A DNA stretch of 64,000 nucleotides from a virus. Shown in pieces: positions 36,227 to 61,478 of the stretch. The translations under genes were made by a program, and so were the position numbers. How positions within the stretch are numbered: position 1 is the first letter of the stretch; every line of letters starts with the position of its first letter. The stretch is from IMG/VR virus record IMGVR_UViG_3300045988_128133; one strand, written 5' to 3'. Below the pieces are notes generated by a model, which saw only the letters and a program-made list of their open reading frames with translations, had not been told where the DNA came from and ran no database searches.

Positions 36227-36959
36227 AATCAAAAAGATTCAACAGCTGGTCGGCGTGACCGCTGACGGCATTATCGGACCGAAGACCATTGATGCAATTC
36301 TTAAACGGCTGACCCCGGAATCCACGGGTACCGGGGATTCCGCGGGTACCGTGGATGCTCATGAAATCCGCAACCGGATGGCCGCTAAAATCCTGAACAT
36401 GGAGGACTACAAGATTACGGGGCCAGAATCCCTGCGGGTTACGCGCCTCCCCTCCGGCGATGGTGGCGGCACCTGGGAGATTGCAGGTATCTGTGACGGG
36501 ATTGAACCGAAGGTGTTTAACCGGATTAAATCCCTGCTGGACAAGGGACTGCGGGATGAAGCATGGGAAGAATGCCTTAGCTACGTACTGGAGAACACCT
36601 CCAAGATTGTAAGCTATCTTCCGAACTATGGTTTCGGCTACGAATTCATGGTACGCGACCTCGCGTTCAACATGGGTACCGGAGGTGCCGTCAATGTCAT
36701 CCAACGCATGCTCAACTCTGTGGGAGATGCTGGCCTTACAGTGGATGGCAAATGGGGACCTAAGACTCAAGCCGCCCTACGAAGCGTAACGGATGTTATT
36801 CCAGAAGCTGAAGTTGTCAGGGGGCTGGACAGGGCGGCCCGTGCAAGGTATGAAAGCATTGTCAAGGCCAACCCTGTTAAGAAGAAGTTCCTTAAAGGTT
36901 GGTTTAACCGATGCGAAGCTCGTGTTAAGTTTGCCGAGACTATTATGTCAAGAAAATAA
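36210..36959 (+). CDS. endolysin: GH108-like muramidase domain + PG_binding_3-like C-terminus, with N-terminal PG-binding repeat
   Basis: DGIIGPKT and DGKWGPKTQAAL PG-binding repeats. GGGTWEIAGI and C-terminal FLKGWFNRCEARV match the GH108/PG_binding_3 architecture. Confidence 0.55.
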   Translation: MTQKAKIKKIQQLVGVTADGIIGPKTIDAILKRLTPESTGTGDSAGTVDAHEIRNRMAAKILNMEDYKITGPESLRVTRLPSGDGGGTWEIAGICDGIEPKVFNRIKSLLDKGLRDEAWEECLSYVLENTSKIVSYLPNYGFGYEFMVRDLAFNMGTGGAVNVIQRMLNSVGDAGLTVDGKWGPKTQAALRSVTDVIPEAEVVRGLDRAARARYESIVKANPVKKKFLKGWFNRCEARVKFAETIMSRK

Positions 36960-37372: not shown

Positions 37373-37847
37373 ACCAGAAGGAGTGATTAAGAACATCACC
37401 AGTCTGGCTGATGAGTTGCAGGTTAAATTACACACCTGCGGCGAACGCATTGCCAAGCGGAATCAGTTCTACGCGACTCTGCCCCTGGGCCGTGAAGGTG
37501 AAAGAAAGCTACCCAAGAATCAGTGGGTTTACTTTCTGCGTGGTTCGGTAGGTATCAAGTATGTTGGAGAAAACCTCACAAGCTCTGTTACTTACATCCG
37601 AACACATGAAGAGATTAAGCTTCCCAATTTTATTGACAGCGAACGCTCACATAAACTTCGTGTCATAAACGGATATATTATTGACAGAAGAACAAACCGG
37701 AAGTATTCTGCGGGTGAGTCGATAGACTTTCAGCGGGGAGAACCTATGCACTTAACCATAAACGGATATGTGTGGATGACCTGGACACCCCCGCTTCCGG
37801 GTTCAACACTTCCGTTCTACCACTCAAATCATGCCTCTAATTCCTAA
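37335..37847 (+). CDS. hypothetical protein
   Basis: 170-aa ORF. Confidence 0.4.
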   Translation: MKLLPKLFRKEPEPEGVIKNITSLADELQVKLHTCGERIAKRNQFYATLPLGREGERKLPKNQWVYFLRGSVGIKYVGENLTSSVTYIRTHEEIKLPNFIDSERSHKLRVINGYIIDRRTNRKYSAGESIDFQRGEPMHLTINGYVWMTWTPPLPGSTLPFYHSNHASNS

Positions 37848-40710
37848 TACAGGAGCATCAAACCCACAACCTCCGATAATTCCGATAGGAACCACGGACA
37901 GTTCATGGCGTAACGGGCATAACCCGGACCGTCCCATGGGGGAACCCATCATCAATTTCCCCTATGCCGTAGTCAAGAACGTCATGTTCTTCGTGGAAAG
38001 GATTGTCAAGAATCCCAACGAATTGTCGGCAGAACTGGGTACTCCCTACAACCCCACAGCGGGGACTACTTTCCTCCCCTTCATGCGTGAAGCTGTGCTT
38101 GTCCATGTCGAACCCGTAGCGGAAGACACGCGCCGCCACATCTATCGGTTCTACTACATGGTCCCACCGCAGGAGCAGTATCGGTATAACATCCAGGATA
38201 TGAAGAAGATTCAGGATGGCTATACACTCAAGGACACTGCCGCGGACGGGAACTTCATGAGCAGTGCCGCTGACGCTGAAGACCTCAAGGACTTCTATGA
38301 AATCATTCGTGAATGGGTTGAACCCACGGATTCCGCGTACACCCCGTTAGCCCTAGGGTCTTTCGACCCCAGCAACGAGAAGCTTGACCCTGACTTCTAT
38401 GACCTCCATGATTATACGGCCTACGATGCCCAGCTGGTCTATGAAGAAGTTGGCCGCTTCGAGCAGGAACATCTCAACAAGTACTTCCGTAAAGTTACAC
38501 GGGTGTATAAAACTCTGCCCGGCCCTGTCGTTAAGGAGTTCATGCCCAATAACATGTGGGTAAAGGGAGACACTGTATGGGAAAACGGTGGGCCCGGAAC
38601 TTCCGTACCGGAGAACGAATGGGTATCTCAGAACGCTATCAAACTTTCCCGCGAGGTGTGGGCCGCCCCACTGTGGGAGGGTGAAGGTGGAGCAGAGCCC
38701 GGACAGGCACGCATCCCTTTCATGCCCACCAAAGAGTTCGAAGGTAAACCTCTTAGCACTGGATGGGATAAGGGCACGTACCCCAGCCTCCAGAACTATA
38801 CGGTGGTTACGATGTTCAAGCGCAATTCCTCCATCGTGGAGAATGAACAGCAGAACAGCCTTTCCGGCAACTGTTGCAACCCGGACTCCCGGTTTGTGCG
38901 TTGCATCAATACCACGGTGACGACCAGCCAGTCAGTGGACTGGACGGCCAACGGAGACCTTCCATCCATTGAACCCCCGGAACCCGGTGAGAACTGTAGC
39001 CAGTGGAGAGTGGATAGTAGTGTCGTTGTCCGGGAAGGCTATAGCCAGAAGGAGACGAGAAAGCAGTGTACCACTTACGAACAGATTGACGAGTTCTGGG
39101 AGAGCCAGTTCGACCGGATAACGAATCAGGTTTATCCGGTGCTTCGTAAAATCGTGCATGAACCCTCCACCGAGTTCGATAAGGACTGGCAGGAAGAAGG
39201 GTTCAAGAAATACACGGACTCCGTGGGTAACGTCTATTACGGACGCAAACTGGAATCCCCGGTAACTGAGGTTTCCATATCCATCCCTGACACTGTGTGG
39301 GTTAAAGAGAACTACAGCCTCAGCGATTTCTCCGTTGGCGAGGACAACCCCAGCCCTACGGGATTGCTTTCTAACCTTAATGTCATCAACGGATGGAACG
39401 ACCCCAGCTATCCTTCGTTCTCCAACTACTTCGCATTCACCTGCGAATTCACTTCCAACAATCCGGGGAGAGACAGGGGAACCGTGGTAACGGTCTATTA
39501 CAAGAACAAACGCTGGTGGCCCATGTATGTGCAGAATAGCATGCCCGTGGAGCAATCTCCTGGCACCATCTCTACGGCCAACCATTACTACAATGTCAAC
39601 CCGGATGGCCCATGGTACACTGCGGACGGCCTTTATCGGATTAGCATGGAGGGGATTATCTCCGACACGCTGTACGGTGAAGGAGTATCTGGCCAGACCT
39701 GGACGCTTCCCATAGGTTATATGGATGGTTCAGGGATATATAAGCGGGGAACCTACAACCCCGAAATGAAGTTTACGGTTGGTTCTCTCCCCACGGGGAT
39801 TAGCAAGGTATTCCTTGATGTCACTAACGGTCAGCTCAATATGCTGGTCTGGGTAGAGAACCCCAATGGCATCTCCATTAACGGGAACATTCCCATTAAG
39901 CTCAACGGCACCAAGATATTCGACATTGCAGTAACCTCTTCCGTGTCCTCATCTAATGAGCCTCCTTCTGTTGTGACCCGCAATGGCGAGAAGAGCGAAT
40001 ACACGGATGGAACCTACTCATTGAAGGCGGCAGTAGCAAACCGGATTGAACTCTCCTACAATGGAACGAGATACCCTTACTTCCAGTTTGGTGCGACCGT
40101 AGCTACCTTGACCGGGAATACATTCAAGCTCCAGAAGAATACCAACGTGTCCCGCGTCGTACTCCGGCAGTGGGTGAACCCCTGTTACGCTGTTGATAGC
40201 TACATGCAGATTCCCGGCATTGGCTATTACCGAAAGTACACCACCACCATGAACTACAGTTTCCCCGCAGTGCTGGGAAATGTTTCATGGATGGCCTGGA
40301 ATACGAGGCCCGACATGTCGGGTAAACAGGGTGGCCAATACTTCCCGTCCACGAACATGAAACGGGATTCCTACTCAGGCCCCTGCCGTGCCGTGGTGGA
40401 AGAGCTTTTCAGCCCGGACGGCTCCTGGCCCAGCACCTGGGGCCTGGGAACTTCTCCCCAGTTCACTACGGCCAGCGGATATTTCTCTACGCCGTTAGTG
40501 GACTTCCGTCTTCCGGCCTGCCTCCACACCCAGTTGAACTTTACGGTCACTATTGGAAACCAGGATGCCAAGTGGACTCCCGGAGTCTTCAATGCAACCT
40601 TCCCGGCAACCAGTGTTACCGACTGGACCTCCGTGACATCCTACTATGCATCCCCGTGGAACGGCGGCATGCTGTGCAAGAAAGTAACCATCTATCCTCC
40701 AACCGCATAA
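37831..40710 (+). CDS. tail fiber / receptor-binding structural protein
   Basis: 959-aa ORF. The C-terminal half is rich in N/S/T/G/W/Y, as in receptor-binding proteins. Confidence 0.5.
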   Translation: MPLIPNTGASNPQPPIIPIGTTDSSWRNGHNPDRPMGEPIINFPYAVVKNVMFFVERIVKNPNELSAELGTPYNPTAGTTFLPFMREAVLVHVEPVAEDTRRHIYRFYYMVPPQEQYRYNIQDMKKIQDGYTLKDTAADGNFMSSAADAEDLKDFYEIIREWVEPTDSAYTPLALGSFDPSNEKLDPDFYDLHDYTAYDAQLVYEEVGRFEQEHLNKYFRKVTRVYKTLPGPVVKEFMPNNMWVKGDTVWENGGPGTSVPENEWVSQNAIKLSREVWAAPLWEGEGGAEPGQARIPFMPTKEFEGKPLSTGWDKGTYPSLQNYTVVTMFKRNSSIVENEQQNSLSGNCCNPDSRFVRCINTTVTTSQSVDWTANGDLPSIEPPEPGENCSQWRVDSSVVVREGYSQKETRKQCTTYEQIDEFWESQFDRITNQVYPVLRKIVHEPSTEFDKDWQEEGFKKYTDSVGNVYYGRKLESPVTEVSISIPDTVWVKENYSLSDFSVGEDNPSPTGLLSNLNVINGWNDPSYPSFSNYFAFTCEFTSNNPGRDRGTVVTVYYKNKRWWPMYVQNSMPVEQSPGTISTANHYYNVNPDGPWYTADGLYRISMEGIISDTLYGEGVSGQTWTLPIGYMDGSGIYKRGTYNPEMKFTVGSLPTGISKVFLDVTNGQLNMLVWVENPNGISINGNIPIKLNGTKIFDIAVTSSVSSSNEPPSVVTRNGEKSEYTDGTYSLKAAVANRIELSYNGTRYPYFQFGATVATLTGNTFKLQKNTNVSRVVLRQWVNPCYAVDSYMQIPGIGYYRKYTTTMNYSFPAVLGNVSWMAWNTRPDMSGKQGGQYFPSTNMKRDSYSGPCRAVVEELFSPDGSWPSTWGLGTSPQFTTASGYFSTPLVDFRLPACLHTQLNFTVTIGNQDAKWTPGVFNATFPATSVTDWTSVTSYYASPWNGGMLCKKVTIYPPTA

Positions 40711-40714
40711 TCTC

Positions 40715-41452
40715 ATGGCGTTCATTACTAAATCCTATTTGACGTATCGAAACGTATGCGACGAATTGTGTATGCTCATTACCAATACGCCGCCCTCCAA
40801 ATCCAATGTTGACTTCCGCAGGATTCTGAAGGAAGCCCAGAACCTCCTGCTTAACGAGGCCACGGTTTCCCCGGATTCCATGGCAATCCTTGATTTCGAA
40901 GGAGTTGAACGGAATGGAATCATTGCCCTCCCTGATGAGTACGATAGTATCGTTGCGGCATGGACACCGGGGGGACAACGGTATAACATCGTTGACCGGG
41001 CCATGTTCGAATCCAACACCTGGTTCCGTAGCGAGTACCCCCGCAGGCCGCACGGCTCACCCCCTCTCATGGTGGACATGGGGCTGAACGAGATGAACCT
41101 CCGTACCTATGCCGTACTGTCTGGTAGCAATGGCATCAATGACAAGGATATGGGCATGACCGTTTCCGCGCGTTGCGCTCTCCGCGGTCTCTCCCTCAAT
41201 GTCTATGATGATAAGGCATGGGAAGATAAGGAGGTTCGTATCTATCCCGGATGCCTCCCCGCCCTCAAGGCCATGATGCTGTCAGTGGTCTATAATGAAC
41301 AGGGCAATACCCAGATGGGCACCGACAGCTATGGACTTGCGGTCAAGTACCTGAACGACCACCTCCGCAAATATCGTCAGGGAACTTATCAGGCTCCCAA
41401 CATTGTACAGAACGGCGGGCTGATGCAGAGCCCCGGCCTTAACCTCATGTAA
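40715..41452 (+). CDS. hypothetical structural protein
   Basis: 245-aa ORF. Confidence 0.45.
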   Translation: MAFITKSYLTYRNVCDELCMLITNTPPSKSNVDFRRILKEAQNLLLNEATVSPDSMAILDFEGVERNGIIALPDEYDSIVAAWTPGGQRYNIVDRAMFESNTWFRSEYPRRPHGSPPLMVDMGLNEMNLRTYAVLSGSNGINDKDMGMTVSARCALRGLSLNVYDDKAWEDKEVRIYPGCLPALKAMMLSVVYNEQGNTQMGTDSYGLAVKYLNDHLRKYRQGTYQAPNIVQNGGLMQSPGLNLM

Positions 41453-41458
41453 ACCATC

Positions 41459-42529
41459 ATGGCAACTCAATCCACAGATATCAGCAGTGAAGGGAAGAAC
41501 CCGGCAACCAAGTCTCCCCGGCAGAAGATAACCGAAGAAGTCCTGCCCAAGGTGAACCCGGATGTTCCCCTTCGTCCCGTAACCAATAACGACCCGAACA
41601 AACCAGTGGACGCTAAGGCATTGAACGAGGTAGCCGCGGCTAACAGCAACCGGGGGATTCAACGTCCCCCGGCATCCCCGGCACCCGCGAATCAGTATGG
41701 CCGCGGCATTACGGAACCTACGGTTCCGGGTGCCGTGGACCCGAACAGTCAGGCCTATGCGGAAGCACAACGTGCCAATTACCAGAAGCTCATGGCCCAG
41801 GGACCCACTGCGGAGGATAGGCTTCTCATGCGAGGGGTGGACCAGAATGTAAGCAGAGGGCAGATGCCCGTTGGTAGGGTACCAGGAGCCACGGCATCCC
41901 CGGTACCCACGGGTTCCGGTGCCACCCGTCCCACGGGTTCCGCTACTCCGGCATCGCTATCGCAGGAAGCTTTCGGCACAGACATTAAGAACAGGCTCAG
42001 CCCTGACGACTATAAGCTATATCAATCACTGAACCCGGCCAAGCAGACTGAGCTCTACAATAAATGGAAGGAACAGCAGGTAAAGCAGAACCCCTCCCTG
42101 CTCACAGCACCGACAGGTTCTCCGGCGGCCCCGGCGGCCCCCGCTGGTGCCCTACCCTCCGGCGGCTCCCCTATACCCACGGCGCAGGTATCGCCGCCCG
42201 GACGTGATGAGAAAATGCTGGAGGTACTGCGTGACCCTACGGCAGACCCGCAGGCAAGGTCTCAGGCCAGCACCTATCTGAAGGTCAAAACCATGTACGC
42301 ACAGAAGGCGAAATTCGGCAACGAGATTAAAGCTCTGGAACGGGCCAGCCGCGCATATACACGCCAGCTGGGGAACATGTTTAAGAATCCCCTGAACAGG
42401 AGAGACCCGAAGTACCAGCAACAGTACGAGCACTGGAAGGCTCTCCGAAAAGGAAATCCACAGGCGAAGCTCATCATGTTCAATGAGTTAATGAAGCGAC
42501 CGGAGTTTGCTTCCCTCAGTTTCAAATAA
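41459..42529 (+). CDS. Pro/Ala-rich hypothetical protein
   Basis: 356-aa ORF with low-complexity repeats (PTGSGATRPTGSATP). Confidence 0.45.
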   Translation: MATQSTDISSEGKNPATKSPRQKITEEVLPKVNPDVPLRPVTNNDPNKPVDAKALNEVAAANSNRGIQRPPASPAPANQYGRGITEPTVPGAVDPNSQAYAEAQRANYQKLMAQGPTAEDRLLMRGVDQNVSRGQMPVGRVPGATASPVPTGSGATRPTGSATPASLSQEAFGTDIKNRLSPDDYKLYQSLNPAKQTELYNKWKEQQVKQNPSLLTAPTGSPAAPAAPAGALPSGGSPIPTAQVSPPGRDEKMLEVLRDPTADPQARSQASTYLKVKTMYAQKAKFGNEIKALERASRAYTRQLGNMFKNPLNRRDPKYQQQYEHWKALRKGNPQAKLIMFNELMKRPEFASLSFK

Positions 42530-42642: not shown

Positions 42643-45600
42643 ATGGCTATTGACTTTACTACAGCTAGCCCGGCAGACTGGAACCCCAGTTCTGAAATCA
42701 CCGGAATCCGAGAAGCCCGCGCCGCAGAAAAGCATGCGGCATGGCAACGGGGTCAGGAGCAGAAAGCTCTCGACCGTCAGAAGAAGGAAGCAGAAGAAGC
42801 ACAGAAACAGGCCGTTAAAGGCGTAGAAGCGGAAGCGGATTTCTTCACTCACCTGTCCGGCGTACTGGACACCGAACGCAAGGAACAGGAAAAACGAGCC
42901 AAGGAACAGAAGACGGAAGCAAGGAAAGAAGTTACCGAGGCCCGTGCCGACATTCAGTTTGAGCAAGGGCAGGCTGACCGTGCGCGTGCTGAACGCGACC
43001 GGGATGTCAAATCCCTGTCCCGCCGCAACATGGGGCTCAACTTCGAAGCCCTTGAGGACATGACCGACTACGTTGGCCGCAGTGCCGATAGCTTTGTTGA
43101 CCTGAAAGAAGGGGCCAAGGCTAACCCGCAGGTGATGGAAAAGCTTGGCAACTCTCTGGGTCTCAATGTCGTAAGCTCCAACTCCCTTACGCCTACCGAC
43201 CCTGCATTCACTTCCCGGTTCGGCTTCTCTGTCGGTGCGGATGGACAGCCAGTTATTACTGAAAAGTTCCTCGCTATTGCCGCCGACCGGAACCGTAGCA
43301 GTAAGGATGTAAGCACGGCGATTGCCCGGACTCTGGCCGCTGAACGGAAGAGCTACATTAAAGCGAATACGACTGTGGCTCCTGACAGTGCCGCGAAAGC
43401 GGAAGCGGAAGCCCCGGAAACCATGGAAGCCGAAGAGATTAAGGCAATCATCGACAGCATTCGCCGCGAGGATGTAAATACCTTCAATGCGGCACGCAAG
43501 GTTTACGACAAATATAATACGGCATCCACGGAATCCATTCAGGGTAAAGCCGCTAAACCCCGCGAGGCTAGCGTGGGGGAGCTTGGCGTTGGCGAATCCT
43601 TTGACACGGCACCTTCATTCACTGGGAATGTATTTGCTGAGCTCGCCAACTTGTCCAAGTCCCCCAGCACCATGTTCCGTCTCGTCCGCGACTACGGCAA
43701 ATACGTAGCTGACACGGCATCCACGGTAGCCGCGGATGCCCGTGCCGCTGAGGCCGGGAAGCGGGCCGTCACTGCCGCGAAGACGATTGACAATCTAGTT
43801 AAGCAGATGGAGGACGAGTATGAGGGCATCAACTCCGTAGCCCTCCGGGATGCTTTGATGAACGAAGCCAAGGTTGCCGAGGCCGCCGTGAAACGGTTGG
43901 CCCCCATGGTTGACCTCGACGAGATGCGGGCCATGGCTGACAAGAAGAGCCATGAACTGGGCCGCACCATTGAATCGGATTACCGCCGCGATTATGCTGA
44001 CACGCTGTATGCCGAACTGGAGAAGCGCAATCCAGGATTGAGCCGTGACCTGATTCGCACGCTGGGAACTACGGAACTTCTCGACAAACATACCGTTGGA
44101 CTGAAGAAGAGAGGAAGTCTGGATGACGCAGTAGCGGGAGCTATGAGCCAGTACAGAAGTGCGGCAGGCCAGGTTGCCGACGTTCTCACCTTCCAGCCGA
44201 AGGCTTCGGTAGGCAAAACCAGTGACCCCCTGAGTGCTATGGAATGGCGGCAGGGTGCGCGTGGCTGGGAATATGGCGTAGTTGGCGGTCCTACCTTTGA
44301 GGTCAGCACCGAACAGCTCCGCGACTACATGAAGAACTATGGGATTAAGAGTACGAAGGACGCGCTTAATTCCCTCAGTCATGCGGCGAGGCAGGGGGAC
44401 CTCAACCTTGGCAGGGGTACGCTGTTTGCATACAACCCCCATACTAAGGAGGTAGATACAAACGCCACGCTTCAATACAACCCCAACGCCCTGTACGATG
44501 ATGACCTATTTAACCGTAGCGTCAATCAATTACAGGAATCCGGGGCGAATCCCGAACTCATCGAGAGAACGATTGAACAGTGGAAGAAGGCCCGCACCAA
44601 ATCCGCAAGCGAAATGGTCAAGCAGAACATGGAACTGGAAGAAACTCTGGGCGCGCTCCGCGATACCTGGATGGGAACTGGTGCCGGGTTTGCTGGAGGC
44701 TGGGTTATGGACCGTCTGGACAAGATGCTGTCCTTCAAGGAGTTCTATAACAGCGGCAAGGAGAATGGCCAGAGTGATGAGCAGATTCTTGCCGCATGGC
44801 AGAAGGAAGGACAGGGGGCTATTAACTCCATCCTGCGTGGCCTTCAAATCGGCGCACACAAATTTGCTGACATTGGGACGGGTGCTGTTGCGGGCTCCCT
44901 TCTTTTCGCCTCCAACCTTATAGGCAGTGACACTGGCCGGGAAAAAGCCCGCACCATGTGGAACACGCTGAATGAAAAACAGCAGGCAGAAGGTGAACTG
45001 GTCAAGGGGAATCTCATGGCTGACATGTCTGCGGAGATTGTCAACCTGGGATATCAAATGGTAGCGACCCATGTCGGTGGTACGGTTGGCAGTGTTGCGG
45101 GCCGTGCTCTGGAACGGACTGCGGTCAATGGTCTCATTAAGGCCAGTGCCAAAGTCATCGCCCGAAAGACGGAAGCCCTTGTCCCTGCCGCGCGTCCCGG
45201 CCTTGCTAGTGGTATTAGCGGCGGTGTCCAGCGTGTATTAAACCAAGCCGCCGCGATTGACCTCCAGCGGGTTGGAGCTGGTGCCGGGGTTAATACCGTC
45301 ATTGCCAGCCAGATAGTTCCGCAGGCATACTCCGAAATCTTCTATGCGGTTTACGACCGTGAAATGGATGGTAAGGAACACACTGCGGAAAACCTCGAAG
45401 CCGCTCAGGCAAAGGCTAATCGCCGGGCCATGATGGGTGCAGGTATCGCGGGTGGCATGTCCGTCCTGATTAACAACCGTATGGGTATGGAATCCTTTAT
45501 CCGTAAAGCAGTTGGAGCTAAAAACCTTCGCAGGGAAAACTGGTTCAACCGTGTGGATGACCGTCTTTCCAACTGGCGCAGGAAGAACTGGAAGGACATG

Positions 45601-48600
45601 ACCAATGTGGAGAAGGTGAAAGCTGTATCTTCCTACCTGTACAGCTGTGCCAAGGTGTCCGCTGAAGGCGCAACCGAAGAACTCGCGGATGAGTTTCAGG
45701 AATGGGCCGTCACGGAACTGGCCAAGAACGGAGAGATTTCTGAACAGTCTATCGGTACGTTCGAAGGAGTCGTTGAAGTAGGAGCAAAGGTTGCTTTCCT
45801 TGGTGCGCTTGGCGGTGTCTATGGAGCGCGGATTGCAGGGGAGACCCCGGCCCAGTTCCAGTTGCCCGCTATCGAACCCACGGAATCCAAGGTATTCAGG
45901 GATGCGAGTCAGCTGGTGGATAGCACGGGCAAAGCCCTGGAATCCGTGGACCCCACGGGACCCGCGGCACCCTTGCTTGAAACAGGAATGCGGACGATTG
46001 AAATCGCAGGGGATAGGGGAGACGTGGAACTGGTGGCAACTGAATGGGTAAACAAGACCATAACTGACGAGGCCCTACAGCTGACGGATGAGCAGAGAAA
46101 GCAATGGATATCTAGGGCACCTGCCCTGGGTATGACCAACTTCCAGTCTTTCCGTGGCTACGTGCAGGAAGCTTCCGACAGGTATCAGTACGAAGGCGAA
46201 TCCGCCGCGGCTGAATACCTTGCGGGCGTTATTCGCGACCTGCCCAACACGATGGCCTATGCCAACGATACAAACGTCAGTGTCATGCGCTCCATGCTGA
46301 CCGAAGCATTCGACGCAATGAAGAGCCGCGAAGCCAACGTTCCCCTTGATGACCACCTCGACCTTCAGGGTACGGGGGATGAAAGCCTTGATGAAGCATC
46401 CGTCGTAATCAATACGCTGACCAATGAACCCACGGAAACCACGGAAGCCGTAGCTCCCACGGAAACCACGGAGACCGCGGCCCGTGAGGAAGCCAATAAG
46501 ATAGTAGCTCCTGTGCAGAACTTCCTCGACAATGGTACGGGGAGAGAAGCCGCCGAGGAAACCGTAAATACTTTGGCCGCAGGGACGGCTACGTTTGACC
46601 CCAACACCGGGGCATGGCTAGCCAGCGGCTCCTTGGAACAGCGGGCAGAAAAGCTGGTGGTGCTTAATAGCATGACCAGTCCCACGGGCCCCGTAGTTAC
46701 CACGAACACCGGGGAGAGTATTGTCATGACTCCCAACGCCAGTATGTATGCGCCAAGTGCCAACGCCAAAGCGGAAGAAGCTCCTACTACCAAATGGGGG
46801 AACGCCGTCATGAGCCTTGACCTGCCTACGGACGGGACTGGAGTCAATGGTATTAACCTCCTGAACAGGTTGAGCGTCAACGCTACACCTGCTCAGAAGA
46901 AAGCCATTGAAGGATTGACGCAGGCTCTCAATGCCGCGGGCCTTGACCTCGCAGTCCGTATGAGCACAGCGACTGACGGTAACTTCTCCCCTGCCATGAT
47001 TACCTACAATCAAGGTGCGGATGGTGAACTGGCTGGTGGCGTTATTGACCTCTTCACCAACAGGGAGAACGCGGTGGAAGGCACTACGGGTACACTCATC
47101 CATGAAGCTATCCACCTGCTGGACCGACACCTGCGGAAGAACAATGCAGAATATGGCCGGGAAATGAGCAAGCTTCGCTCAGCTATGGCGGCTCGCTTCA
47201 ACGACATCCATGCAGTCTTGCGGGAGGCTTACGACAATAGCCTTGACCCCAACGAGATGAACGCAATCGCCGCTGTCATGAACGACCTGGCCTACGGGAT
47301 TAAGGGTGCTGACGAGTTCGCCTCTGTGGTCTTCTCCAACCCCGTCATCAATTCTCTGGTAATGGGATTCACCGGGAAGAATGCGGATATGGACATGCTT
47401 ACCCGGTATGCGGAAACGACAGGTAAACGTAAGCCGATTCACAATCGTATCATCGACTGGTTGCGCGACCTCTTTCATGAGGTTCGCAATGAAATGCAGA
47501 ATGCGCCTGTTCTCGATGAGGCAGAATGGAACGCCTATGTCCAGCGCGTGGCCGACGTAGCCCCGGAAGGTGCCTGGTATAGTCTTGACCGACCGGAAAC
47601 CTATGCAGTAAATGTGACGGACTACACCGGGAATAAGCTGGGTAAATCCTATTTCAACCCCATGGCCTATGAGAGCGGCCTCTCCCAGCGCATGAGCTTC
47701 GGTGTGGCCGCAGAAATTGTAGGCTCTTCCTCCGGCAACTGGGCGACCATGTTCCGCAACGGTTGGCGCATGACCCGCTGGGGGCAGGGAGGTATCAACG
47801 TTCCCACCCCGGAACAGCGTCTCGTCCTACAAGAACAAATGGTCAACCTGAGCGCATCCTATGAGCGCGTCAATAAGCGTCTGGGTAAGGTGAAGGAGCT
47901 TGCGGATAAGTATGTCCAGAAGAACAACCTCACCACTGATGCCCGGCAGAAACTTGCCTCTGCCATCATTGACACGGCAGGTAATCTGGACAATGACATC
48001 GACCCGGAAACCGTGGAACGTATTAACCGTGAAACGAATGCGGAGATTGCTCAGCTCAAGGAAACCCGTGACTACCGTATCAATGCGGCGAAGCAACACG
48101 TACAGAGGGTGGTTAATCAGAACGCTGAACTGATTCGTGCCGCCAACCTCATGGCCAACACCAGTGAAGGACGTGCATCCATCAATGAAATGATTCGTCT
48201 CCTTAACGAAGTTGGCCGGGAAGGATATGCATCTACGGTCAATGCCGAAACTATGGCTCCCGCTATGAACCAAAGGCTCACGGAATCCATGGATTCCCTG
48301 GGTTCACGGGTTCGTGACCTGGGGAATGCGGCTCTCGCCTCCCGCTACTATGCACTGGCACGGGACACCAAGAGCTACATTCTGGACCAGGTGAATGGGG
48401 TGGAATCTCCCTTCACTCTGGATGAATTGCAGGAGGGCTGGGATAATCTGCGCTCCGACTACCTGCGTGACGAGCTGTCCAAGAACGTTGAAACGGCCAA
48501 CATGCTCCGTGACATTAAGGAGGCTAAGGCTCAAGCTCGTGAATGGATTAAAGAGGCTAACGCGGAATACGCGCAAGCCACACGCCATACGGGTATTAAG

Positions 48601-51600
48601 GCAGACGGTACGGTCGTTGAATCCGGCATCGTTTGGAAGAAGCGTGATGCCGCCCTGCTGGAAGCCCGAAGGAAGAAGCAGGCTGAATTCATGGCTCGTC
48701 GTGAAGCTGGTGAAAAATACCTGAAGGAGCAAGGCGTAATCGGAAACCTCATCTACAATGCAGTTGTCGATGCCCGCAAGGAAATCGCAGTAACGCAAAT
48801 GGCTATCGCCCGCATCACGGGTGACAGCAAGATGGAAGACAATGCCAAGCGCATGGACTACCTGCATCGCACCTATCTGGCTGTGGGTAAGCACGCTGGG
48901 GACTACACGAAGACGATGCGGGAAATCATCGCCAATCCTAACGGTGAAACCGCACAAGCCTTTAAGGGGCTTACCGTTCTGTTGAATGAAGCCGCGACGG
49001 CTCATGCCGAAACCCATCAGAGGGAGATGGCCGAAACCGTAAGCACCGTGCTGGACAATATGCAGGCACTTGCAACCCTGCATGATGAACTGAACCTTGA
49101 GGTAGTGCCCGCAGGGGACACGGCTAACGAGAACAACGCACTCCTGTTCAATGGTGTTGCCAAGAACTTCAGAAGTCGCAATATTCTTGACTTCATCCAT
49201 GACAACTATGGGGAAATTCAGTTGGCTTCTGACCTCAAGAACGGAATGAATATGTCCAGCATCTACGATAAGGCCATGTCCATGATTGTGCAGAGCGACA
49301 GGTACACGGCCAAACGTCTGGACAAAGTGAAGCGCAGGCTTCGCACGGAAGCCCAGGATAAATACATTGAATCCCTCCTACAAGGTGTGCCGGGCGATAC
49401 GCTTCTGGACAAGCTGGGTTCCTTCAATTCAGGAGATGCTTTGGCCCACAGGATAAATGAAATCCTCCCCATGGTTCCGGTCAATGCCATCAACCAAATC
49501 TGGAATACCCCGCACCTGGATATTGAAGAGAAGCTGAACGACGTGGTGGACCTTCTCCGTAAGCAGGCAGAGATTCAGATGAACCTCAATGGTCTGGGCA
49601 ATGTCATTAACGCTCAGGACATTAAGACGTTGGAATACCCCCAGCTCGCGGAACTGGCCATGGCTCATGCCAAGGAAGCCATTGACGAAGTACTGTCCAA
49701 GAAACGCACCCGTGAAGACGTAACGTCTATGCGGAAACGTGAACCGGAATGGAAGCGCAAGGCCATGCACGAACTCCACGATACTACCATTGGTGAAGCC
49801 ATTGGCGTATTGCAGAACACTGTTTCCCTCCAGTCTAAACTGGCAGTGAATCAGGTGCTGTCTGATGAATATGCAACAGTGCTTAAGGACCAGGGGGTTG
49901 TAGTCGCGGAGGACAGTGCGGACCGTACCCCCGACATGGTGGAAGTCATGTTGAAGAATAAGCGTAATTCCCTGAACGGACTCTACACTACGCCGGATGT
50001 GGCTCGTGCCATTTACAAAATCTACATGCCCTCCGACGAAATCATGGACTCCAAGACCAGCACGTATGAGGATGTCCGCAAGTACTGGAAGAGCCACACA
50101 GGAAGACCTGGCTTCCTCTCAAAGACGGGCGGCTACATCAACATGGCCACTCTTATCGCCAGCCCAGGTTCCACCTTCCGTAACGCCTATGGTACTGCGG
50201 CTCAGATGCTTCATGCTGGTGCGTTCCCTGTGAAGGGGCTTAAGGACATTGGTTCCCTCGTGAAAGAATGGGGCCAGATGCACAAGCTCTACCTTAAAGC
50301 ACAGGAAGGAGGCATTGGTGCGGAGTCTTCTGCTCAGAAGCTCCTACAGGCTGAGTCTAAATACAATGAGAAGATTCGCTACTGGCAGGAGATTGGTCTT
50401 CTTGATGCGGGGCAGGGTGAATTCCTTCGGAATATTTGGAAGTCCGAAGAGTTCGCGACAATGCAGGGAGAACTGGAATCCACGGATTCCGAGGATTCCT
50501 TCTATGCCTTTGCCGAAGCGTTAGAGGATAAGAGGTCCAAGACCACCATCAAAGATGTGGCCAAGAAGGCAGGACATGGTGTTGCATACCCCGTGAAATT
50601 GGCCGCCTTTGCTTACGGGATGCCGGATGCCGCGGCTAAGATTGCGTTGTTCGGTAATCAGCAGGCACTCAGCCGCAAGCAGTTGGAGGTCCAGCTGGAA
50701 CGGGCGACCATGAGAGCGGCCGCTGGGGAAGAACTCAATGCAAGGCAGAAGGCCCTTGTCCGCGCGGCAGGTAATGGTGAAGTGGCATGGAATGCGTATG
50801 TCGATAGGCATGCGGCTTCCAAGGTGAAAACCCTGCTTCCGACAGGTACGCGCACCCCGAAGTGGGTGAAGTACATGGGGCAGTATGTTGCGCCCTACTT
50901 CATGTTCCAGTACCATACCTTCCAGTCCGCTATGTATAACGTGGGCTACGGCATGGAAGAAATTAGCGATGGTGTATGGGCTATGAAGAACGGCATGAGT
51001 AAGGACGGTGCCTACCTCGTAACCCGCGGGCTTGGCCGATTCATGGGTTCCGCGGCGGCTCTGACTGCCATGCCCATGCTTTCCCGCTGGGCTCTCATCA
51101 CAGCGTTGCATACTCTTTATGGTGATGATGAGGACAAGATGCAATTCATTACGAATGAGGGGGCACTCCGTAAGATGGCAGAGGCTGGACTCTTCCCGGA
51201 ATATGACAAGTACGGTGACTTACTCGCCGTAGTGGACAAGGAAAGGAACGAGTTTACCTACTTTAATCTTGACTATGTGAACCCCTACAAGAACGTGGTC
51301 AAGAGCTTTGGTACACTCTACAGACTAGCAGTCAAGTATGACGAAGACAAGTGGTCCAGCAATCCTATGGGTGAACTTCACAACCTGTTGGAAGGCACTG
51401 TGTTATCTCCGTCCATGGGGCTCGCTACCTTGTTTGAAGTGTTAGATGCTGAAGGATTCCATTATCAGTATGCGACTACGGGCAATGAGAACGTGGACTT
51501 CATACCTGCGGTCGTCAATGCTCTAACCCTCACGGCGGGCTTCGAACCGTCCATGAGTGGCGGCCATACCTGGGAATGGGCTGAACGTCTGGCAACTACA

Positions 51601-52242
51601 GCGAATAGCAAACTCCCGGTCTATAGTTGGGGTGTCAAGTCTATCCGTTCTCTGGGTGGAGATACCCCCGACCTTAGCTGGGGAGCATTCGCCGCGCAGA
51701 CGATTGGTACGGGGATGCGTAGGCCGAAGGACCTGACGGAAACCTTCGCTCAAGGGTTGAAGAATTCCCAAGCTTCGCTCAACCGAGCCAAGCGTATGAC
51801 GATTCTCAAGCCGAACTACTATAAGCGAATGGAGTCCGGGGCTGACGTGGATGCCGTGGTTGCCGAGGAATCCGAGGCTATCATTAAGAGCTATACCAAC
51901 GTGGTGAACGGGGTGCGCTTCGTCTATGGACTGAGCCGAACCTTGCCAGAGAATATGAGGGATGCTGTCCTTGCCTCCGCTATTGAACGTTCCGGCATGA
52001 GTGCCAACAGGTTCAAGGCGGCCATGAGTGGCATCCTCCCTGAACTGATTAGCAAGGAGTCTGCCAAGGAAGCCATTGCTCGTCTCCAACTGGAAGATAA
52101 AAAGGCAAGCACGACGGAACGTGGTCATGAACTGATTCAGAAACAGATTGACCTCATCCTCCAGCAGGCTGGAAGCGGTTCCGTGGATGTCAATGACAGA
52201 GCCTTGAGCCAGAAGGAAATTGATGGTTCTCTTCGACAGTAG
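42643..52242 (+). CDS. giant 3199-aa protein with HEAIH zincin-like metallopeptidase motif; candidate polyvalent/ejected virion protein or tape-measure-like protein
   Basis: Single uninterrupted ORF. N-terminal K/E-rich coiled coil; TLIHEAIHLLDRH (HExxH) near aa 1480. Long helical/Ala-rich segments. Followed by a strong terminator. Confidence 0.65.
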   Translation: MAIDFTTASPADWNPSSEITGIREARAAEKHAAWQRGQEQKALDRQKKEAEEAQKQAVKGVEAEADFFTHLSGVLDTERKEQEKRAKEQKTEARKEVTEARADIQFEQGQADRARAERDRDVKSLSRRNMGLNFEALEDMTDYVGRSADSFVDLKEGAKANPQVMEKLGNSLGLNVVSSNSLTPTDPAFTSRFGFSVGADGQPVITEKFLAIAADRNRSSKDVSTAIARTLAAERKSYIKANTTVAPDSAAKAEAEAPETMEAEEIKAIIDSIRREDVNTFNAARKVYDKYNTASTESIQGKAAKPREASVGELGVGESFDTAPSFTGNVFAELANLSKSPSTMFRLVRDYGKYVADTASTVAADARAAEAGKRAVTAAKTIDNLVKQMEDEYEGINSVALRDALMNEAKVAEAAVKRLAPMVDLDEMRAMADKKSHELGRTIESDYRRDYADTLYAELEKRNPGLSRDLIRTLGTTELLDKHTVGLKKRGSLDDAVAGAMSQYRSAAGQVADVLTFQPKASVGKTSDPLSAMEWRQGARGWEYGVVGGPTFEVSTEQLRDYMKNYGIKSTKDALNSLSHAARQGDLNLGRGTLFAYNPHTKEVDTNATLQYNPNALYDDDLFNRSVNQLQESGANPELIERTIEQWKKARTKSASEMVKQNMELEETLGALRDTWMGTGAGFAGGWVMDRLDKMLSFKEFYNSGKENGQSDEQILAAWQKEGQGAINSILRGLQIGAHKFADIGTGAVAGSLLFASNLIGSDTGREKARTMWNTLNEKQQAEGELVKGNLMADMSAEIVNLGYQMVATHVGGTVGSVAGRALERTAVNGLIKASAKVIARKTEALVPAARPGLASGISGGVQRVLNQAAAIDLQRVGAGAGVNTVIASQIVPQAYSEIFYAVYDREMDGKEHTAENLEAAQAKANRRAMMGAGIAGGMSVLINNRMGMESFIRKAVGAKNLRRENWFNRVDDRLSNWRRKNWKDMTNVEKVKAVSSYLYSCAKVSAEGATEELADEFQEWAVTELAKNGEISEQSIGTFEGVVEVGAKVAFLGALGGVYGARIAGETPAQFQLPAIEPTESKVFRDASQLVDSTGKALESVDPTGPAAPLLETGMRTIEIAGDRGDVELVATEWVNKTITDEALQLTDEQRKQWISRAPALGMTNFQSFRGYVQEASDRYQYEGESAAAEYLAGVIRDLPNTMAYANDTNVSVMRSMLTEAFDAMKSREANVPLDDHLDLQGTGDESLDEASVVINTLTNEPTETTEAVAPTETTETAAREEANKIVAPVQNFLDNGTGREAAEETVNTLAAGTATFDPNTGAWLASGSLEQRAEKLVVLNSMTSPTGPVVTTNTGESIVMTPNASMYAPSANAKAEEAPTTKWGNAVMSLDLPTDGTGVNGINLLNRLSVNATPAQKKAIEGLTQALNAAGLDLAVRMSTATDGNFSPAMITYNQGADGELAGGVIDLFTNRENAVEGTTGTLIHEAIHLLDRHLRKNNAEYGREMSKLRSAMAARFNDIHAVLREAYDNSLDPNEMNAIAAVMNDLAYGIKGADEFASVVFSNPVINSLVMGFTGKNADMDMLTRYAETTGKRKPIHNRIIDWLRDLFHEVRNEMQNAPVLDEAEWNAYVQRVADVAPEGAWYSLDRPETYAVNVTDYTGNKLGKSYFNPMAYESGLSQRMSFGVAAEIVGSSSGNWATMFRNGWRMTRWGQGGINVPTPEQRLVLQEQMVNLSASYERVNKRLGKVKELADKYVQKNNLTTDARQKLASAIIDTAGNLDNDIDPETVERINRETNAEIAQLKETRDYRINAAKQHVQRVVNQNAELIRAANLMANTSEGRASINEMIRLLNEVGREGYASTVNAETMAPAMNQRLTESMDSLGSRVRDLGNAALASRYYALARDTKSYILDQVNGVESPFTLDELQEGWDNLRSDYLRDELSKNVETANMLRDIKEAKAQAREWIKEANAEYAQATRHTGIKADGTVVESGIVWKKRDAALLEARRKKQAEFMARREAGEKYLKEQGVIGNLIYNAVVDARKEIAVTQMAIARITGDSKMEDNAKRMDYLHRTYLAVGKHAGDYTKTMREIIANPNGETAQAFKGLTVLLNEAATAHAETHQREMAETVSTVLDNMQALATLHDELNLEVVPAGDTANENNALLFNGVAKNFRSRNILDFIHDNYGEIQLASDLKNGMNMSSIYDKAMSMIVQSDRYTAKRLDKVKRRLRTEAQDKYIESLLQGVPGDTLLDKLGSFNSGDALAHRINEILPMVPVNAINQIWNTPHLDIEEKLNDVVDLLRKQAEIQMNLNGLGNVINAQDIKTLEYPQLAELAMAHAKEAIDEVLSKKRTREDVTSMRKREPEWKRKAMHELHDTTIGEAIGVLQNTVSLQSKLAVNQVLSDEYATVLKDQGVVVAEDSADRTPDMVEVMLKNKRNSLNGLYTTPDVARAIYKIYMPSDEIMDSKTSTYEDVRKYWKSHTGRPGFLSKTGGYINMATLIASPGSTFRNAYGTAAQMLHAGAFPVKGLKDIGSLVKEWGQMHKLYLKAQEGGIGAESSAQKLLQAESKYNEKIRYWQEIGLLDAGQGEFLRNIWKSEEFATMQGELESTDSEDSFYAFAEALEDKRSKTTIKDVAKKAGHGVAYPVKLAAFAYGMPDAAAKIALFGNQQALSRKQLEVQLERATMRAAAGEELNARQKALVRAAGNGEVAWNAYVDRHAASKVKTLLPTGTRTPKWVKYMGQYVAPYFMFQYHTFQSAMYNVGYGMEEISDGVWAMKNGMSKDGAYLVTRGLGRFMGSAAALTAMPMLSRWALITALHTLYGDDEDKMQFITNEGALRKMAEAGLFPEYDKYGDLLAVVDKERNEFTYFNLDYVNPYKNVVKSFGTLYRLAVKYDEDKWSSNPMGELHNLLEGTVLSPSMGLATLFEVLDAEGFHYQYATTGNENVDFIPAVVNALTLTAGFEPSMSGGHTWEWAERLATTANSKLPVYSWGVKSIRSLGGDTPDLSWGAFAAQTIGTGMRRPKDLTETFAQGLKNSQASLNRAKRMTILKPNYYKRMESGADVDAVVAEESEAIIKSYTNVVNGVRFVYGLSRTLPENMRDAVLASAIERSGMSANRFKAAMSGILPELISKESAKEAIARLQLEDKKASTTERGHELIQKQIDLILQQAGSGSVDVNDRALSQKEIDGSLRQ

Positions 52243-52265
52243 GCTACATTAAATCCTTGACTTAC

Positions 52266-52308
52266 AGAGGGCATGGGGGGTACAATCCTCCCATGCCCTC
52301 TTTTCGTA
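52266..52308 (+). terminator. rho-independent terminator (12-bp stem AGAGGGCATGGG / CCCATGCCCTCT, loop GGGTACAATCCT, TTTTCG)
   Basis: It overlaps the candidate promoter TTGACT(52257-52262)...TACAAT(52281-52286). Confidence 0.65.
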
Positions 52309-52370
52309 TAGTACCCAATCATGTCAGAGCCACCCCTCCCGGTGGCTGGAAATTTATTGTCCCGGAATCT

Positions 52371-52904
52371 ATGAGCGTTCGACTGAAAGGTGTTAAGGTT
52401 GAAGGACCTACGCTTGAACAGCTCAGGAAAAACGTTACCCGCCTCTTCATCAACAACGGGGAACCTTTCCGAAATGAAGCTTTCGAATCTGAACTATGCT
52501 CCTATCTCCCCCCGGAGTATTGTCAGACGTGCGGAGATAAGGGTATCGAGTGGCGGGAATATGAACCCATGTCTGCACGCAAAGTCCTGTCCTTCTTTGC
52601 CACGATGGTATTGTGGTATAGACAGGGGCACAGGTTTGTAAGCAGTGAAGAGGCTCGACGACGCTACGATATTTGCAGGAACTGCCCTCGTGCTACGGAC
52701 GTACCTCCCCCAGGTTTGGATAAGGAAGGGTGTGCTACCTGCGGTGCCGAAGGGGCTGGAAGAAAATTCTTAAAAGAGAAAACACAAAATCTTGTGGACC
52801 TCTCTGGCGGGCGGCCTCCCTTATACTGCACCTTGTGTGGTTGTGACCTGACGGTGAAGGCCCACTTTGATATAGACTCTGACTGTTGGAAGAAAAATTC
52901 TTGA
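52371..52904 (+). CDS. Cys-rich (4x CxxC) hypothetical protein
   Basis: Start moved to the first ATG downstream of the terminator. CQTC...CRNC...CATC...CTLCGC. Confidence 0.4.
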   Translation: MSVRLKGVKVEGPTLEQLRKNVTRLFINNGEPFRNEAFESELCSYLPPEYCQTCGDKGIEWREYEPMSARKVLSFFATMVLWYRQGHRFVSSEEARRRYDICRNCPRATDVPPPGLDKEGCATCGAEGAGRKFLKEKTQNLVDLSGGRPPLYCTLCGCDLTVKAHFDIDSDCWKKNS

Positions 52905-57947: not shown

Positions 57948-58514
57948 TTACCAGGTGGTCATAACAGACACATTATGTCCCTGCCAGTGGTGATATTTAA
58001 CCGCCCGGCCCTGCTCATCCCGCTCTATCACGGATATATGGGTTCCATGGGTGTTGGTTAGCATATCCAAATCGGAGACCTTGAGTTTATCGAACCCCTT
58101 GATGCAGGTGCCACCGACAAAGATAAGGCATTGAGTATAAACATCATCCACTTTTGTGGGACGTTCGGGGGAGTCGCAGGATGAGAGGCATACCACGGCA
58201 ATCAGACCCGCCACGAGGGCCAGAACCAGTGTGAGAATCCTATGGGTTAAATGCTTCATATATTTTCGTTGTCTTCTCCGTTTGAGTTTAAGCTGTTTCT
58301 TAATTCTTTTCCGATTGTTCTTTACCAGACAACGTATGTTGTCGGGCAGAGGTTTAAGGGAAGAGCGCATCCTTTCCAGTTCATAGAAAAACAGGAGGAC
58401 ATACCCGCAGGTAGCGCATACTATTTGTGGATTGGAACCATCAGTAACCTGATAGGGGCCTCCGCAAACAGGGCATACCGGAGTATTAGGCGAGGATGAT
58501 TTTGGACTTGGCAT
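57948..58514 (-). CDS. zinc-ribbon / basic linker / TM protein (anti-sigma-like topology). Alternatively two genes, with an internal lipoprotein-like start MKHLTH...LSSC at 58259
   Basis: N-terminal CPVCGG...CATCGY, Lys/Arg-rich stretch, then hydrophobic LTLVLALVAGLIAVVCLSSC with a lipobox-like LSSC. Confidence 0.4.
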   Translation of the reverse strand: MPSPKSSSPNTPVCPVCGGPYQVTDGSNPQIVCATCGYVLLFFYELERMRSSLKPLPDNIRCLVKNNRKRIKKQLKLKRRRQRKYMKHLTHRILTLVLALVAGLIAVVCLSSCDSPERPTKVDDVYTQCLIFVGGTCIKGFDKLKVSDLDMLTNTHGTHISVIERDEQGRAVKYHHWQGHNVSVMTTW

Positions 58515-59133
58515 CTTCTACTTGCTGTTGCAGAACTTCTTTACTGATGAAGGAGTATTTGGAAAGCCTCAACAGCTTCATGCTTACGACGTTGGACAGT
58601 ACGGTGAAATACCTGAACGCGTTAATCTTTCCTTCACCCTCACCCACGAGGTCAGGCTTGTTCAGGGTGGTGTAGGAAATGAGCATATGCACTGCCATGA
58701 CCATGATAATGGCACGAACCATTGTGTTCGTATCAGTGTACATAGCGCATGCCTGTCCCGCATTCTCAATCTCCTGCGTGAACATGATAGAATCCCGGAG
58801 GTTGGACACCAGTTCAATAGCCTTCTCCAGCATGAACTTGACACCATGAGTTGTGGGAAGTTCTATACCTGGGAAAATAGAAGCCGCATGTTCCCCAATC
58901 TCCGTAGCCTTTTCAGCCACGGCTTCCGCGGATGCATCGGGTGCCAGACCGAAGGTGGGAATGGATTCCCAGGCCAGTTCCATTTCCTCTTTGAGCTTAA
59001 TGGATTCCGGTTCCTTCAACAGGGCGGCCACTGCTTCTTCAACTGCGTCGAGCTTGATTTCTTTAGTAGATTCGTTCATTTGTGTAGGTTGGTTAATGGG
59101 TTTAAATGATACCGTGGGTTCCGTGGATGTCAA
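58486..59133 (-). CDS. hypothetical protein with internal TM segment
   Basis: 215-aa ORF with a TTG start. Its N-terminal STEPTV is encoded by the dispersed motif. Confidence 0.4.
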   Translation of the reverse strand: MTSTEPTVSFKPINQPTQMNESTKEIKLDAVEEAVAALLKEPESIKLKEEMELAWESIPTFGLAPDASAEAVAEKATEIGEHAASIFPGIELPTTHGVKFMLEKAIELVSNLRDSIMFTQEIENAGQACAMYTDTNTMVRAIIMVMAVHMLISYTTLNKPDLVGEGEGKINAFRYFTVLSNVVSMKLLRLSKYSFISKEVLQQQVEDAKSKIILA

Positions 59134-59758: not shown

Positions 59759-59792
59759 AGAACTTATTAGTAGCGTTATATGAGGGTTCTAG

Positions 59793-60359: not shown

Positions 60360-60396
60360 TATCTTATTGATTAGTAGGGTTATATGAGGGTTCTAG

Positions 60397-60744: not shown

Positions 60745-60767
60745 AGCGTTCTATGAGGGTTCTAGAA

Positions 60768-61376: not shown

Positions 61377-61478
61377 GATTTATAGCGTTCTATGAGGTTT
61401 CTAGTATTTTGGTTGATGTTAATTTAGGTTAATTATCTTTTTTCTTTTGGATTGTTAGGGTAGCCTAATTTGTTAGTT

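Follow-up and report, generated by a model that had tools for sequence, protein, structure and literature searches.

A giant HExxH-containing protein of an uncultured phage as a candidate relative of N4 gp50 without an RNA polymerase module

A stretch of viral DNA of 64,000 nucleotides (nt), IMG/VR record IMGVR_UViG_3300045988_128133, which is referred to as the window throughout, carries on its plus strand an open reading frame (ORF) for a protein of 3199 amino acids (aa), and the nature of this giant protein is the subject of the present analysis. On balance, and with some reserve, we favour the interpretation that it is an internal virion protein of giant size, related or analogous to gp50 of phage N4 but without the RNA polymerase (RNAP) module. 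A polyvalent or ejected protein, for example of the N4-like kind, had already been put forward in an earlier note on this DNA, which was prepared without database searches, and the ejected protein is supported here by a domain that is very probably homologous to the C1 domain of N4-like phages, by the gp50-like position of the gene, and by a module of DNA-transfer proteins that is present in some alleles. The gene (42643..52242, plus strand, stop codon included) starts with ATG, and its translation contains no internal stop, so that the uninterrupted frame described previously was recovered in both the ORF listing and the translation. An open frame of 9.6 kb is not a chance event, since the protein is kept at full length in homologues down to 25-29% identity, and the ORF is a real, conserved gene.

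The HExxH domain and its similarity to C1

The zinc-metallopeptidase signature that had been noticed in the central segment of the protein is present (TLIHEAIHLLDRH, with HEAIH at aa 1487-1491, nt 47101-47115), is conserved, and is the sole HExxH motif in the 3199 aa. The pattern [ILVM]HExxH[ILVM][ILVM]D, in short HExxHxxD, was found in 127 of the 128 full-length family members, including homologues at 25-29% identity, and a second motif, [DNS]EF, in 126 of them. Across the family, little or no variation is seen at H1487, at H1491, at D1494, which is located three residues after the HExxH motif, and at E1558, which belongs to a DEF motif with NP directly behind it. E1558 (47314-47316) aligns with the NEF motif of N4-like C1 domains and is a candidate third zinc ligand, and the domain as a whole probably binds zinc.

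A zincin-like metallopeptidase (MPTase) domain has been described in the C-terminal region of the N4 virion RNA polymerase (vRNAP) at aa 2130-2448, together with a widespread phage-type variant of the polyvalent MPTases in which an Asp follows the HExxH motif by three residues (PMC5512222). In the 2026 paper on the N4 structure, the region is named C1, comprises residues 2124-2375 and is noted for its HExxH motif (PMC13434306). For a profile comparison with hhalign, 17 sequences of the HExxH domain were used on the side of the family, and the C1 domains of N4 and nine other Schitoviridae (10 sequences), built from GenBank records, on the side of N4; used as a query, the N4 C1 fragment had retrieved a single homologue. 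The two profiles aligned over 181 colinear columns with a probability of 85.5%, an E-value of 5.6e-6 and a score of 45.7, and the aligned part includes the N-terminal helix, the TLIHExxH helix and the [DN]EF helix. Compared with 45.7 for the real template, scores of 8-16 were obtained with column-shuffled templates and of 24-33 with block-shuffled ones in which the motif is retained. Since the motif-keeping shuffles score just 24-33, the signal exceeds the level of the motif alone. When the full-length family was compared with 7 vRNAPs, the HExxH region was the top and only clear match, with a score of 60 and an E-value of 1e-4. The motif is embedded in GTLIHEAIH in the window protein and in ETLIHELVH in N4 gp50 (HELVH at aa 2228). 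In our judgement, the HExxH domain is in all likelihood homologous to the Schitoviridae C1 domain.

Structure prediction by segment, a check proposed in the earlier note, gave poor models for most of what was modelled, but a zincin-like topology emerged at aa ~1416-1565 (predicted local distance difference test, pLDDT, 60-79), where AlphaFold places a helix at 1416-1431, three strands, the HExxH helix at 1481-1500 and further helices. As far as a model of low confidence allows, this order of helix, three strands and HExxH helix would correspond to the zincin-like MPTase topology of Iyer et al. (PMC5512222).

Search for further enzymatic modules

Apart from the HExxH domain, no domain of enzymatic type was recognised in the giant protein. 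Pfam, PHROGs, NCBIfam and PDB profiles revealed no ADP-ribosyltransferase, methylase, SNF2, nuclease, lysozyme or MuF domain, and the polyvalent nature proposed in the earlier note is not supported, with a single domain of enzymatic type and no polymerase recognised. The MPTase is nevertheless a hub domain of polyvalent proteins (PMC5512222), and both the very large size and the modular insertions in some alleles would suit a polyvalent anti-defence effector (Iyer et al. 2017), in which several effector domains are delivered with the DNA and freed by the metallopeptidase. Such an effector overlaps with a gp50-type ejection protein, as both assume delivery with the DNA. We consider it improbable, since none of the four profile collections yielded a second effector domain, and the conservation of the giant protein is even and colinear across clades and not shuffled domain by domain.

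With regard to transcription, we are fairly confident that the giant protein has no polymerase module. The motif scan found no motif-B-like pattern (Rx3Kx7YG), and the sole T/DxxGR matches are those at aa 142 and 1840. In hhalign comparisons with an RNAP-domain profile of 7 Schitoviridae vRNAPs, the scores did not exceed 31.5 and no match lies inside the catalytic core: the match with a score of 31.5 reaches no further than the linker end of this segment, and the best match in the C-terminal half scores 25 over 22 columns. C1 was detected in the same vRNAP comparison. A T7-like RNAP in the giant protein was rejected for lack of both a motif set and profile similarity, in agreement with the earlier note, in which no T7-like RNAP motifs had been recognised. 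A two-barrel RNAP, which is suggested by the single DxDxD motif of the protein (DNDID, aa 1783), was likewise rejected, because the motif reads DNDIE in the homologue P0008 and is absent in P0121 and P0122; the likeness to crAss-like proteins that had been suggested is therefore not supported.

A true virion RNAP or other enzyme acting on nucleic acids, with a catalytic module that has diverged beyond recognition by sequence, would agree with the size, the operon position and the C1 domain shared with N4 gp50. No other RNAP family was recognised among the window ORFs scanned, a conserved 31-nt element upstream of several minus-strand genes is a candidate phage-specific promoter, and ~2,800 aa of the giant protein are without a confident fold. 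This explanation nonetheless appears quite improbable to us, given that the profile search that detects C1 finds no similarity to the RNAP domain, that no set of motifs such as T/DxxGR with Rx3Kx7YG was found, and that DNDID is lost in P0008, P0121 and P0122. Moreover, the RNAP of N4 is located between linker and C1, whereas in the giant protein no more than ~100 residues separate the T/E/P-rich linker (aa ~1255-1295) from the start of the C1-like domain, and the modelled aa 2000-3199 are predicted to be almost purely helical.

Gene neighbourhood and accessory module

The giant gene is located near the end of a plus-strand operon and is followed by two small ORFs and then by a switch to the minus strand. 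The order of the endolysin gene, further downstream the genes for proteins of ~850-960, ~245 and ~360-417 aa, and finally the giant gene is kept in the clades with ~50% and ~29% identity. In N4, the order along transcription is gp53 (partly in the stretch examined), gp52 (150 aa), gp51 (644 aa) and, at the end of the block, gp50 (3500 aa), and the window order of 959, 245, 356 and 3199 aa mirrors gp53-gp52-gp51-gp50 in position and rough sizes. The N4 protein gp53 is a tail plug, whereas gp51 and gp52 belong to the ejection proteins (PMC13434306), and a trio of a small, a mid-sized and a giant protein is the pattern of the ejection operons in T7, DEV and N4, whose partners often have no detectable homology (PMC11445570). 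Judged by position only, the 959-, 245- and 356-aa proteins are candidates for the tail or plug protein and the smaller ejection proteins. The fibre genes that had been assumed upstream of the giant gene could not be identified as such; the 959-aa product has no family match.

In the alleles P0007, P0064 and P0114, a module of ~95 aa is inserted at aa ~357-370 (window 43711-43752); the window allele is without it. The module (GNLDLxxRPxVKNxDGSxSTVRS...GKEYLIPTVSxDG...) shares 55-61% identity with parts of several phage proteins whose annotations refer to DNA transfer, IVP-C or virion structure. It was found at the N terminus of a phrog_770 'DNA transfer protein' in phage Bas106, which has neighbours annotated as ejection proteins, at the C terminus of an 'IVP-C-like protein' in the Zobellviridae phage Klyazma, and in proteins of several Salmonella phages, SPN1S among them, that carry the annotation head, structural or minor structural. 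No Pfam family matches the module, which among the annotated matches is confined to these three classes. The module is mobile, and its distribution fits a giant protein of the same functional class as its annotated carriers.

These observations also bear on a tape measure protein (TMP) of a very long-tailed siphovirus or myovirus with a tail-associated peptidase domain, to which we assign a low probability. Such a protein would be huge, predicted to be almost all helical and equipped with hydrophobic Gly-rich segments, as is the case here, and phage P23-45 has a giant TMP of 5,002 residues with an enzymatic module (PMC10770324). Several TMPs also appear in the weak list of Foldseek matches in BFVD, with TM-scores of ~0.06-0.09 and E-values of at least 0.03 that are not meaningful. 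However, only two small ORFs precede the strand switch, so that no distal-tail or baseplate genes follow, and no tube, sheath, chaperone, tape-measure or baseplate family was found in the window ORFs scanned with Pfam and PHROGs, in accordance with the lack of a classical tape-measure context pointed out in the earlier note. In addition, the HExxH domain has its probable homologue in a podoviral ejection protein, and the accessory module is otherwise a component of DNA-transfer, IVP-C-like or structural proteins. Tail length usually corresponds to ~1.5 Å per residue of the tape measure, and a tail of ~480 nm would be expected for 3199 aa. A non-virion protein, e.g., a late intracellular scaffold or membrane-remodelling factor, has nothing specific in its favour and is highly improbable, considering that the gene lies inside a block of structural and lysis genes, that the protein shows homology to a domain of a virion protein and that some alleles carry a module of DNA-transfer and structural proteins.

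Proposed role of the giant protein

Packaging of the giant protein in the virion and its ejection are reasonably probable. As an RNAP-less ejection protein of the gp50 type and the largest component of a DNA ejectosome, it would be carried inside the capsid and leave through the tail when a cell is infected. The order along the protein would be an N-terminal region, a low-complexity linker, the C1-type zincin-like HExxH domain and an all-alpha C-terminal region of ~1560 aa. In the N-terminal ~1250 aa, Gly/Ala-rich hydrophobic helices would engage the cell envelope or the inner membrane, and the HExxH domain may act as a peptidase that cleaves the giant protein itself, its partners or a host target. 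The C-terminal ~1560 aa would have their counterpart in C2 of gp50, a region without structural relatives that, in Schitoviridae, mediates encapsidation and the contact with the periplasmic-tunnel protein. Because there is no polymerase in the giant protein, the host RNAP would be used for early transcription. The protein contains a single Cys in 3199 aa, a composition that, in our own reading, would fit a polypeptide that unfolds and refolds during translocation.

Several results weigh against this interpretation. Outside C1, four further hhalign matches remain below threshold; they are colinear with N4, among them one in the N-terminal domain (NTD) and two in C2, with scores of 30-33, but the reversed-template control of the vRNAP comparison reached a score of 38, so that the NTD and C2 matches are suggestive only. 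With N4 gp50 as the sole template, hhalign of the full-length family arrived at a probability of 0.3%. Furthermore, hhalign showed no homology of the 959-, 245- and 356-aa proteins to N4 gp53, gp52 and gp51, which makes the gene-order argument a purely positional one, the large terminase is weakly P22-like, and the portal and capsid candidates gave no match. The Pfam models, including any MPTase model, did not match the giant protein. The AlphaFold models of aa 530-1729 (mostly helix) and aa 2000-3199 (nearly pure helix) are of low confidence, with a mean pLDDT of 50.3 and 43.6, respectively, and Foldseek comparisons of the models with PDB and BFVD gave no meaningful match; with such low pLDDT values and no Foldseek match, a hidden fold is possible. 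Finally, the family member P0128 (L041 10001-20227) is the sole exception to the HExxH motif. It has HKAAH for HEAAH as a result of a single G-to-A change (AAG for GAG) and has thereby lost the predicted catalytic Glu while both His are retained, and catalysis may thus be dispensable in that lineage.

A further-reaching proposal, which we regard as rather doubtful, is that the family is an RNAP-less sister or derivative of gp50, with NTD, C1 and C2 forming an older autonomous ejection machine and the polymerase gained in the N4-like phages or lost here. If this were true, the C1 metallopeptidase would have an ejection-related role that is independent of transcription. In a bolder variant, the ~2,800 aa without a confident fold would conceal a new enzymatic activity.

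Distribution of the family

In the homologue search, the giant protein matched 400 proteins; of these, 120 were listed, and almost all have a length of 3200-3310 aa. The listed matches comprise a group with 90-99% identity to the window protein and a large group with ~50% identity, and in every source among the homologues the protein is hypothetical or unnamed. More than 120 full-length relatives are located on metagenomic phage contigs, whose length of up to ~70 kb probably corresponds to the genome size; the names of the IMG/VR contigs suggest that these phages may come from the human gut. A profile of aa 1301-2450 matched 7 proteins among 1.84 billion cluster representatives, two of which, P0121 (29% identity) and P0122 (~25%), are full-length giants, and a follow-up search added the distant relatives P0127-P0132. 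In IMG/VR, the family was found at 36 loci, almost all from one collection. No match was obtained in 50,697 GenBank phage records with the giant gene (megablast and tblastn), and two scans of GTDB, with one genome per species, gave no match and pointed to neither a prophage nor a host. Neither the whole giant protein nor the HExxH segment matched a Pfam, PHROG or NCBIfam family, and the PDB sequence-profile searches with the full-length profile and the domain profile remained without a match.

Regions of the protein and neighbouring features

The regions of the giant protein and the features of the surrounding operon are compiled in Table 1.

Table 1. Regions of the giant protein and features in its neighbourhood, in window positions.
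Feature	Residues (aa)	Positions (nt)	Strand	Basis and remarks
Endolysin with PG_binding_3 domain		36210-36959		Domain scan
959-aa gene, beta-rich product		37831-40710	+	Always found with the giant gene
245-aa gene		40715-41452	+	Always found with the giant gene
356-aa gene, P/A/S-rich product		41459-42529	+	Always found with the giant gene
N-terminal K/E-rich region	1-140	42643..43062	+	Composition; probably helical or coiled-coil
Strongly conserved block VGELGVGESFDTAPSFTGNVFAELANLSKSPS	~300-360	43540..43752	+	Conservation 0.77
Gly/Ala-rich, moderately hydrophobic helices	744-762, 799-820, 877-897, 1042-1061	Region 44860..45837	+	Hydropathy scan, uncharged stretches
Family-invariant block EGxxEExxDExxxW	1006-1024		+	Family alignment
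Low-complexity T/E/P-rich linker NEPTETTEAVAPTETTETAAREE	~1255-1295	46405..46527	+	Low conservation, 0.35
Zincin-like HExxH domain (predicted)	~1400-1640	46840..47562	+	hhalign to Schitoviridae C1/MPTase, motif conservation
C-terminal region	C-terminal ~1560	47563..52239	+	Predicted almost all alpha-helical; no detectable relatives outside the family
Most invariant block KxLxPTGxRTPxWV...PxFxFxxHTxxSxxY	2724-2767	50812-50943	+	Family alignment
Terminator-like hairpin		52266-52301	+	15 stem pairs by scan, 24 nt past the stop codon of the giant gene

The first 200 residues contain 15% K/R and 18% D/E, which agrees with the charged composition in the earlier description of a K/E-rich coiled-coil N terminus, the coiled coil itself being probable. 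The long helical Ala-rich regions of the same description found partial support, in that both AlphaFold models are helical at low confidence and the Ala content is 7-18% per 200-aa block. The Gly/Ala-rich helices, whose region is also modelled as helices by AlphaFold at low confidence, are candidate membrane-active segments and would resemble the membrane-active NTD of gp50. The hairpin behind the giant gene has a weak T tail (TTTCGTATAG); the earlier note had placed a terminator with a 12-bp stem after the stop codon, and the hairpin is indeed located there, but with the longer stem given in Table 1. The start of the listed TTG-start ORF 52257-52904 falls at this hairpin, and in relatives the gene downstream of the giant gene encodes 190-201 aa and starts 50-85 nt past it. 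On account of the hairpin position and the starts in relatives, the true start of this ORF is probably later than 52257.

At the other end of the window, replication genes are found at 1-10 kb (VapE-type primase-helicase, PolA, superfamily 2 helicase and PD-(D/E)XK nuclease), followed by the large terminase gene (11605-13440), whose product is 26% identical to P22-like terminases. Three tandem 27-nt repeats at 19177-19271 encode an acidic G/D/E/K/T-rich stretch in a 396-aa ORF between the portal and capsid candidates, which is probably the scaffolding protein. At the locus L001 (8628-9840), which belongs to a relative with ~50% identity, two ORFs are located between a 384-aa gene and the giant gene; one matches HTH_OrfB_IS605, the other OrfB_IS605 and Cas12f1-like_TNB, which points to a TnpB-type insertion of the IS605 family in a phage structural operon.

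Repeats and short elements

Units of 9 bp, approximately CCACGGAAT or CCGTGGAAT, occur in tandem arrays of 2-4 copies that are scattered in coding regions over positions 1-52000 of the window, for example at 25915-25949, 30239-30257, 34291-34309 and 46428-46473. A loose pattern of the unit gave 17 arrays on the plus strand and 11 on the minus strand, as opposed to 0.14 expected from shuffles of the base composition (mononucleotide). The dispersed motif arrays that had been reported in the giant ORF were found again, with six arrays of 9-bp period at 43412, 43721, 45878, 46430, 50480 and 51854. They partly encode T/E-rich low-complexity peptide, and one of the arrays encodes part of the T/E/P-rich linker.

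A different element of ~31 nt is present in four copies at 59766-59796, 60370-60400, 60739-60769 and 61378-61408 and reads CTAGAACCCTCATATAACGCTACTAAT on the coding (minus) strand. Every copy precedes the start codon of a minus-strand gene by 0-15 nt, and the element might serve as phage-specific promoter, as leader or as translational operator. Finally, an exact direct repeat of 20 nt (GGTTCCGTGGATGTCAATGA) occurs at 52177-52196, near the 3' end of the giant ORF, and 7 kb away at 59117-59136, where it lies within the overlap of the minus-strand ORFs 58486-59133 and 59130-59612.

Comparison with known systems

The giant gene occupies ~14% of the genome in a group of uncultured phages of ~70 kb, and the comparison with known systems provides a first functional lead for its product. 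The domain agrees with the phage-type polyvalent MPTases (PMC5512222) in that a small sheet precedes the helix with the HExxH motif, a Glu is located on a helix further downstream, and an Asp follows the motif by three residues. Unlike the polyvalent MPTase proteins, the giant protein has no match to a Pfam MPTase model and no extra effector domains fused to it.

The logic of an operon with a small, a mid-sized and a largest protein is shared with gp14-gp15-gp16 of T7, gp7-gp20-gp16 of P22 and phrog_770. As in podoviral ejection proteins, helices and hydrophobic segments are predicted, and some alleles share the ~95-aa module with phrog_770-type and IVP-C-like proteins. However, the giant protein is two to five times larger, has no transglycosylase domain and shows no sequence similarity to these ejection proteins beyond the accessory module. 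Like the TMP-fused vRNAP of P23-45 and the crAss-like vRNAPs, it would be a giant virion protein with an enzymatic module, provided that it is packaged as we suppose. In contrast to it, those enzymes are two-barrel polymerases with an invariant DxDxD, whereas the sole DxDxD here is not conserved, and the giant gene is not found in the surroundings of a tape measure gene.

The giant protein resembles the Schitoviridae vRNAPs, for example N4 gp50 and DEV gp71, in terms of size (3199 aa vs ~3400-3600 aa), of the very probably homologous C1 HExxH domain and, for N4 gp50, of the position as the last large gene of the structural block behind one mid-sized and two smaller genes. N4 gp50 consists of a membrane-binding NTD, a low-complexity linker (907-1006), C1 with its HExxH motif and a mostly helical C2 without structural relatives (PMC13434306), and the hydrophobic N-terminal region, the low-complexity linker and the orphan all-alpha C-terminal region of the giant protein would be analogous. 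The differences are that there is no T7-like RNAP domain, the ~1100 aa between linker and C1 of N4 being absent here, that the similarity to NTD and C2 is not significant, that the partner proteins are not detectably homologous, and that capsid, portal and terminase are not Schitoviridae-like. The motif itself is a variant, with HExxHxxD here as opposed to HExxHA(S/A)T in the N4-like phages. In the N4-type vRNAP, the C-terminal region is required for encapsidation, and the C1 HExxH domain is without an assigned function (PMC5512222, PMC13434306). Searches for N4-like phages by means of the polymerase hallmark would miss such relatives, and a protein of the size of gp50 with C1 but without the polymerase would be a natural test case for separating ejection and packaging from transcription.

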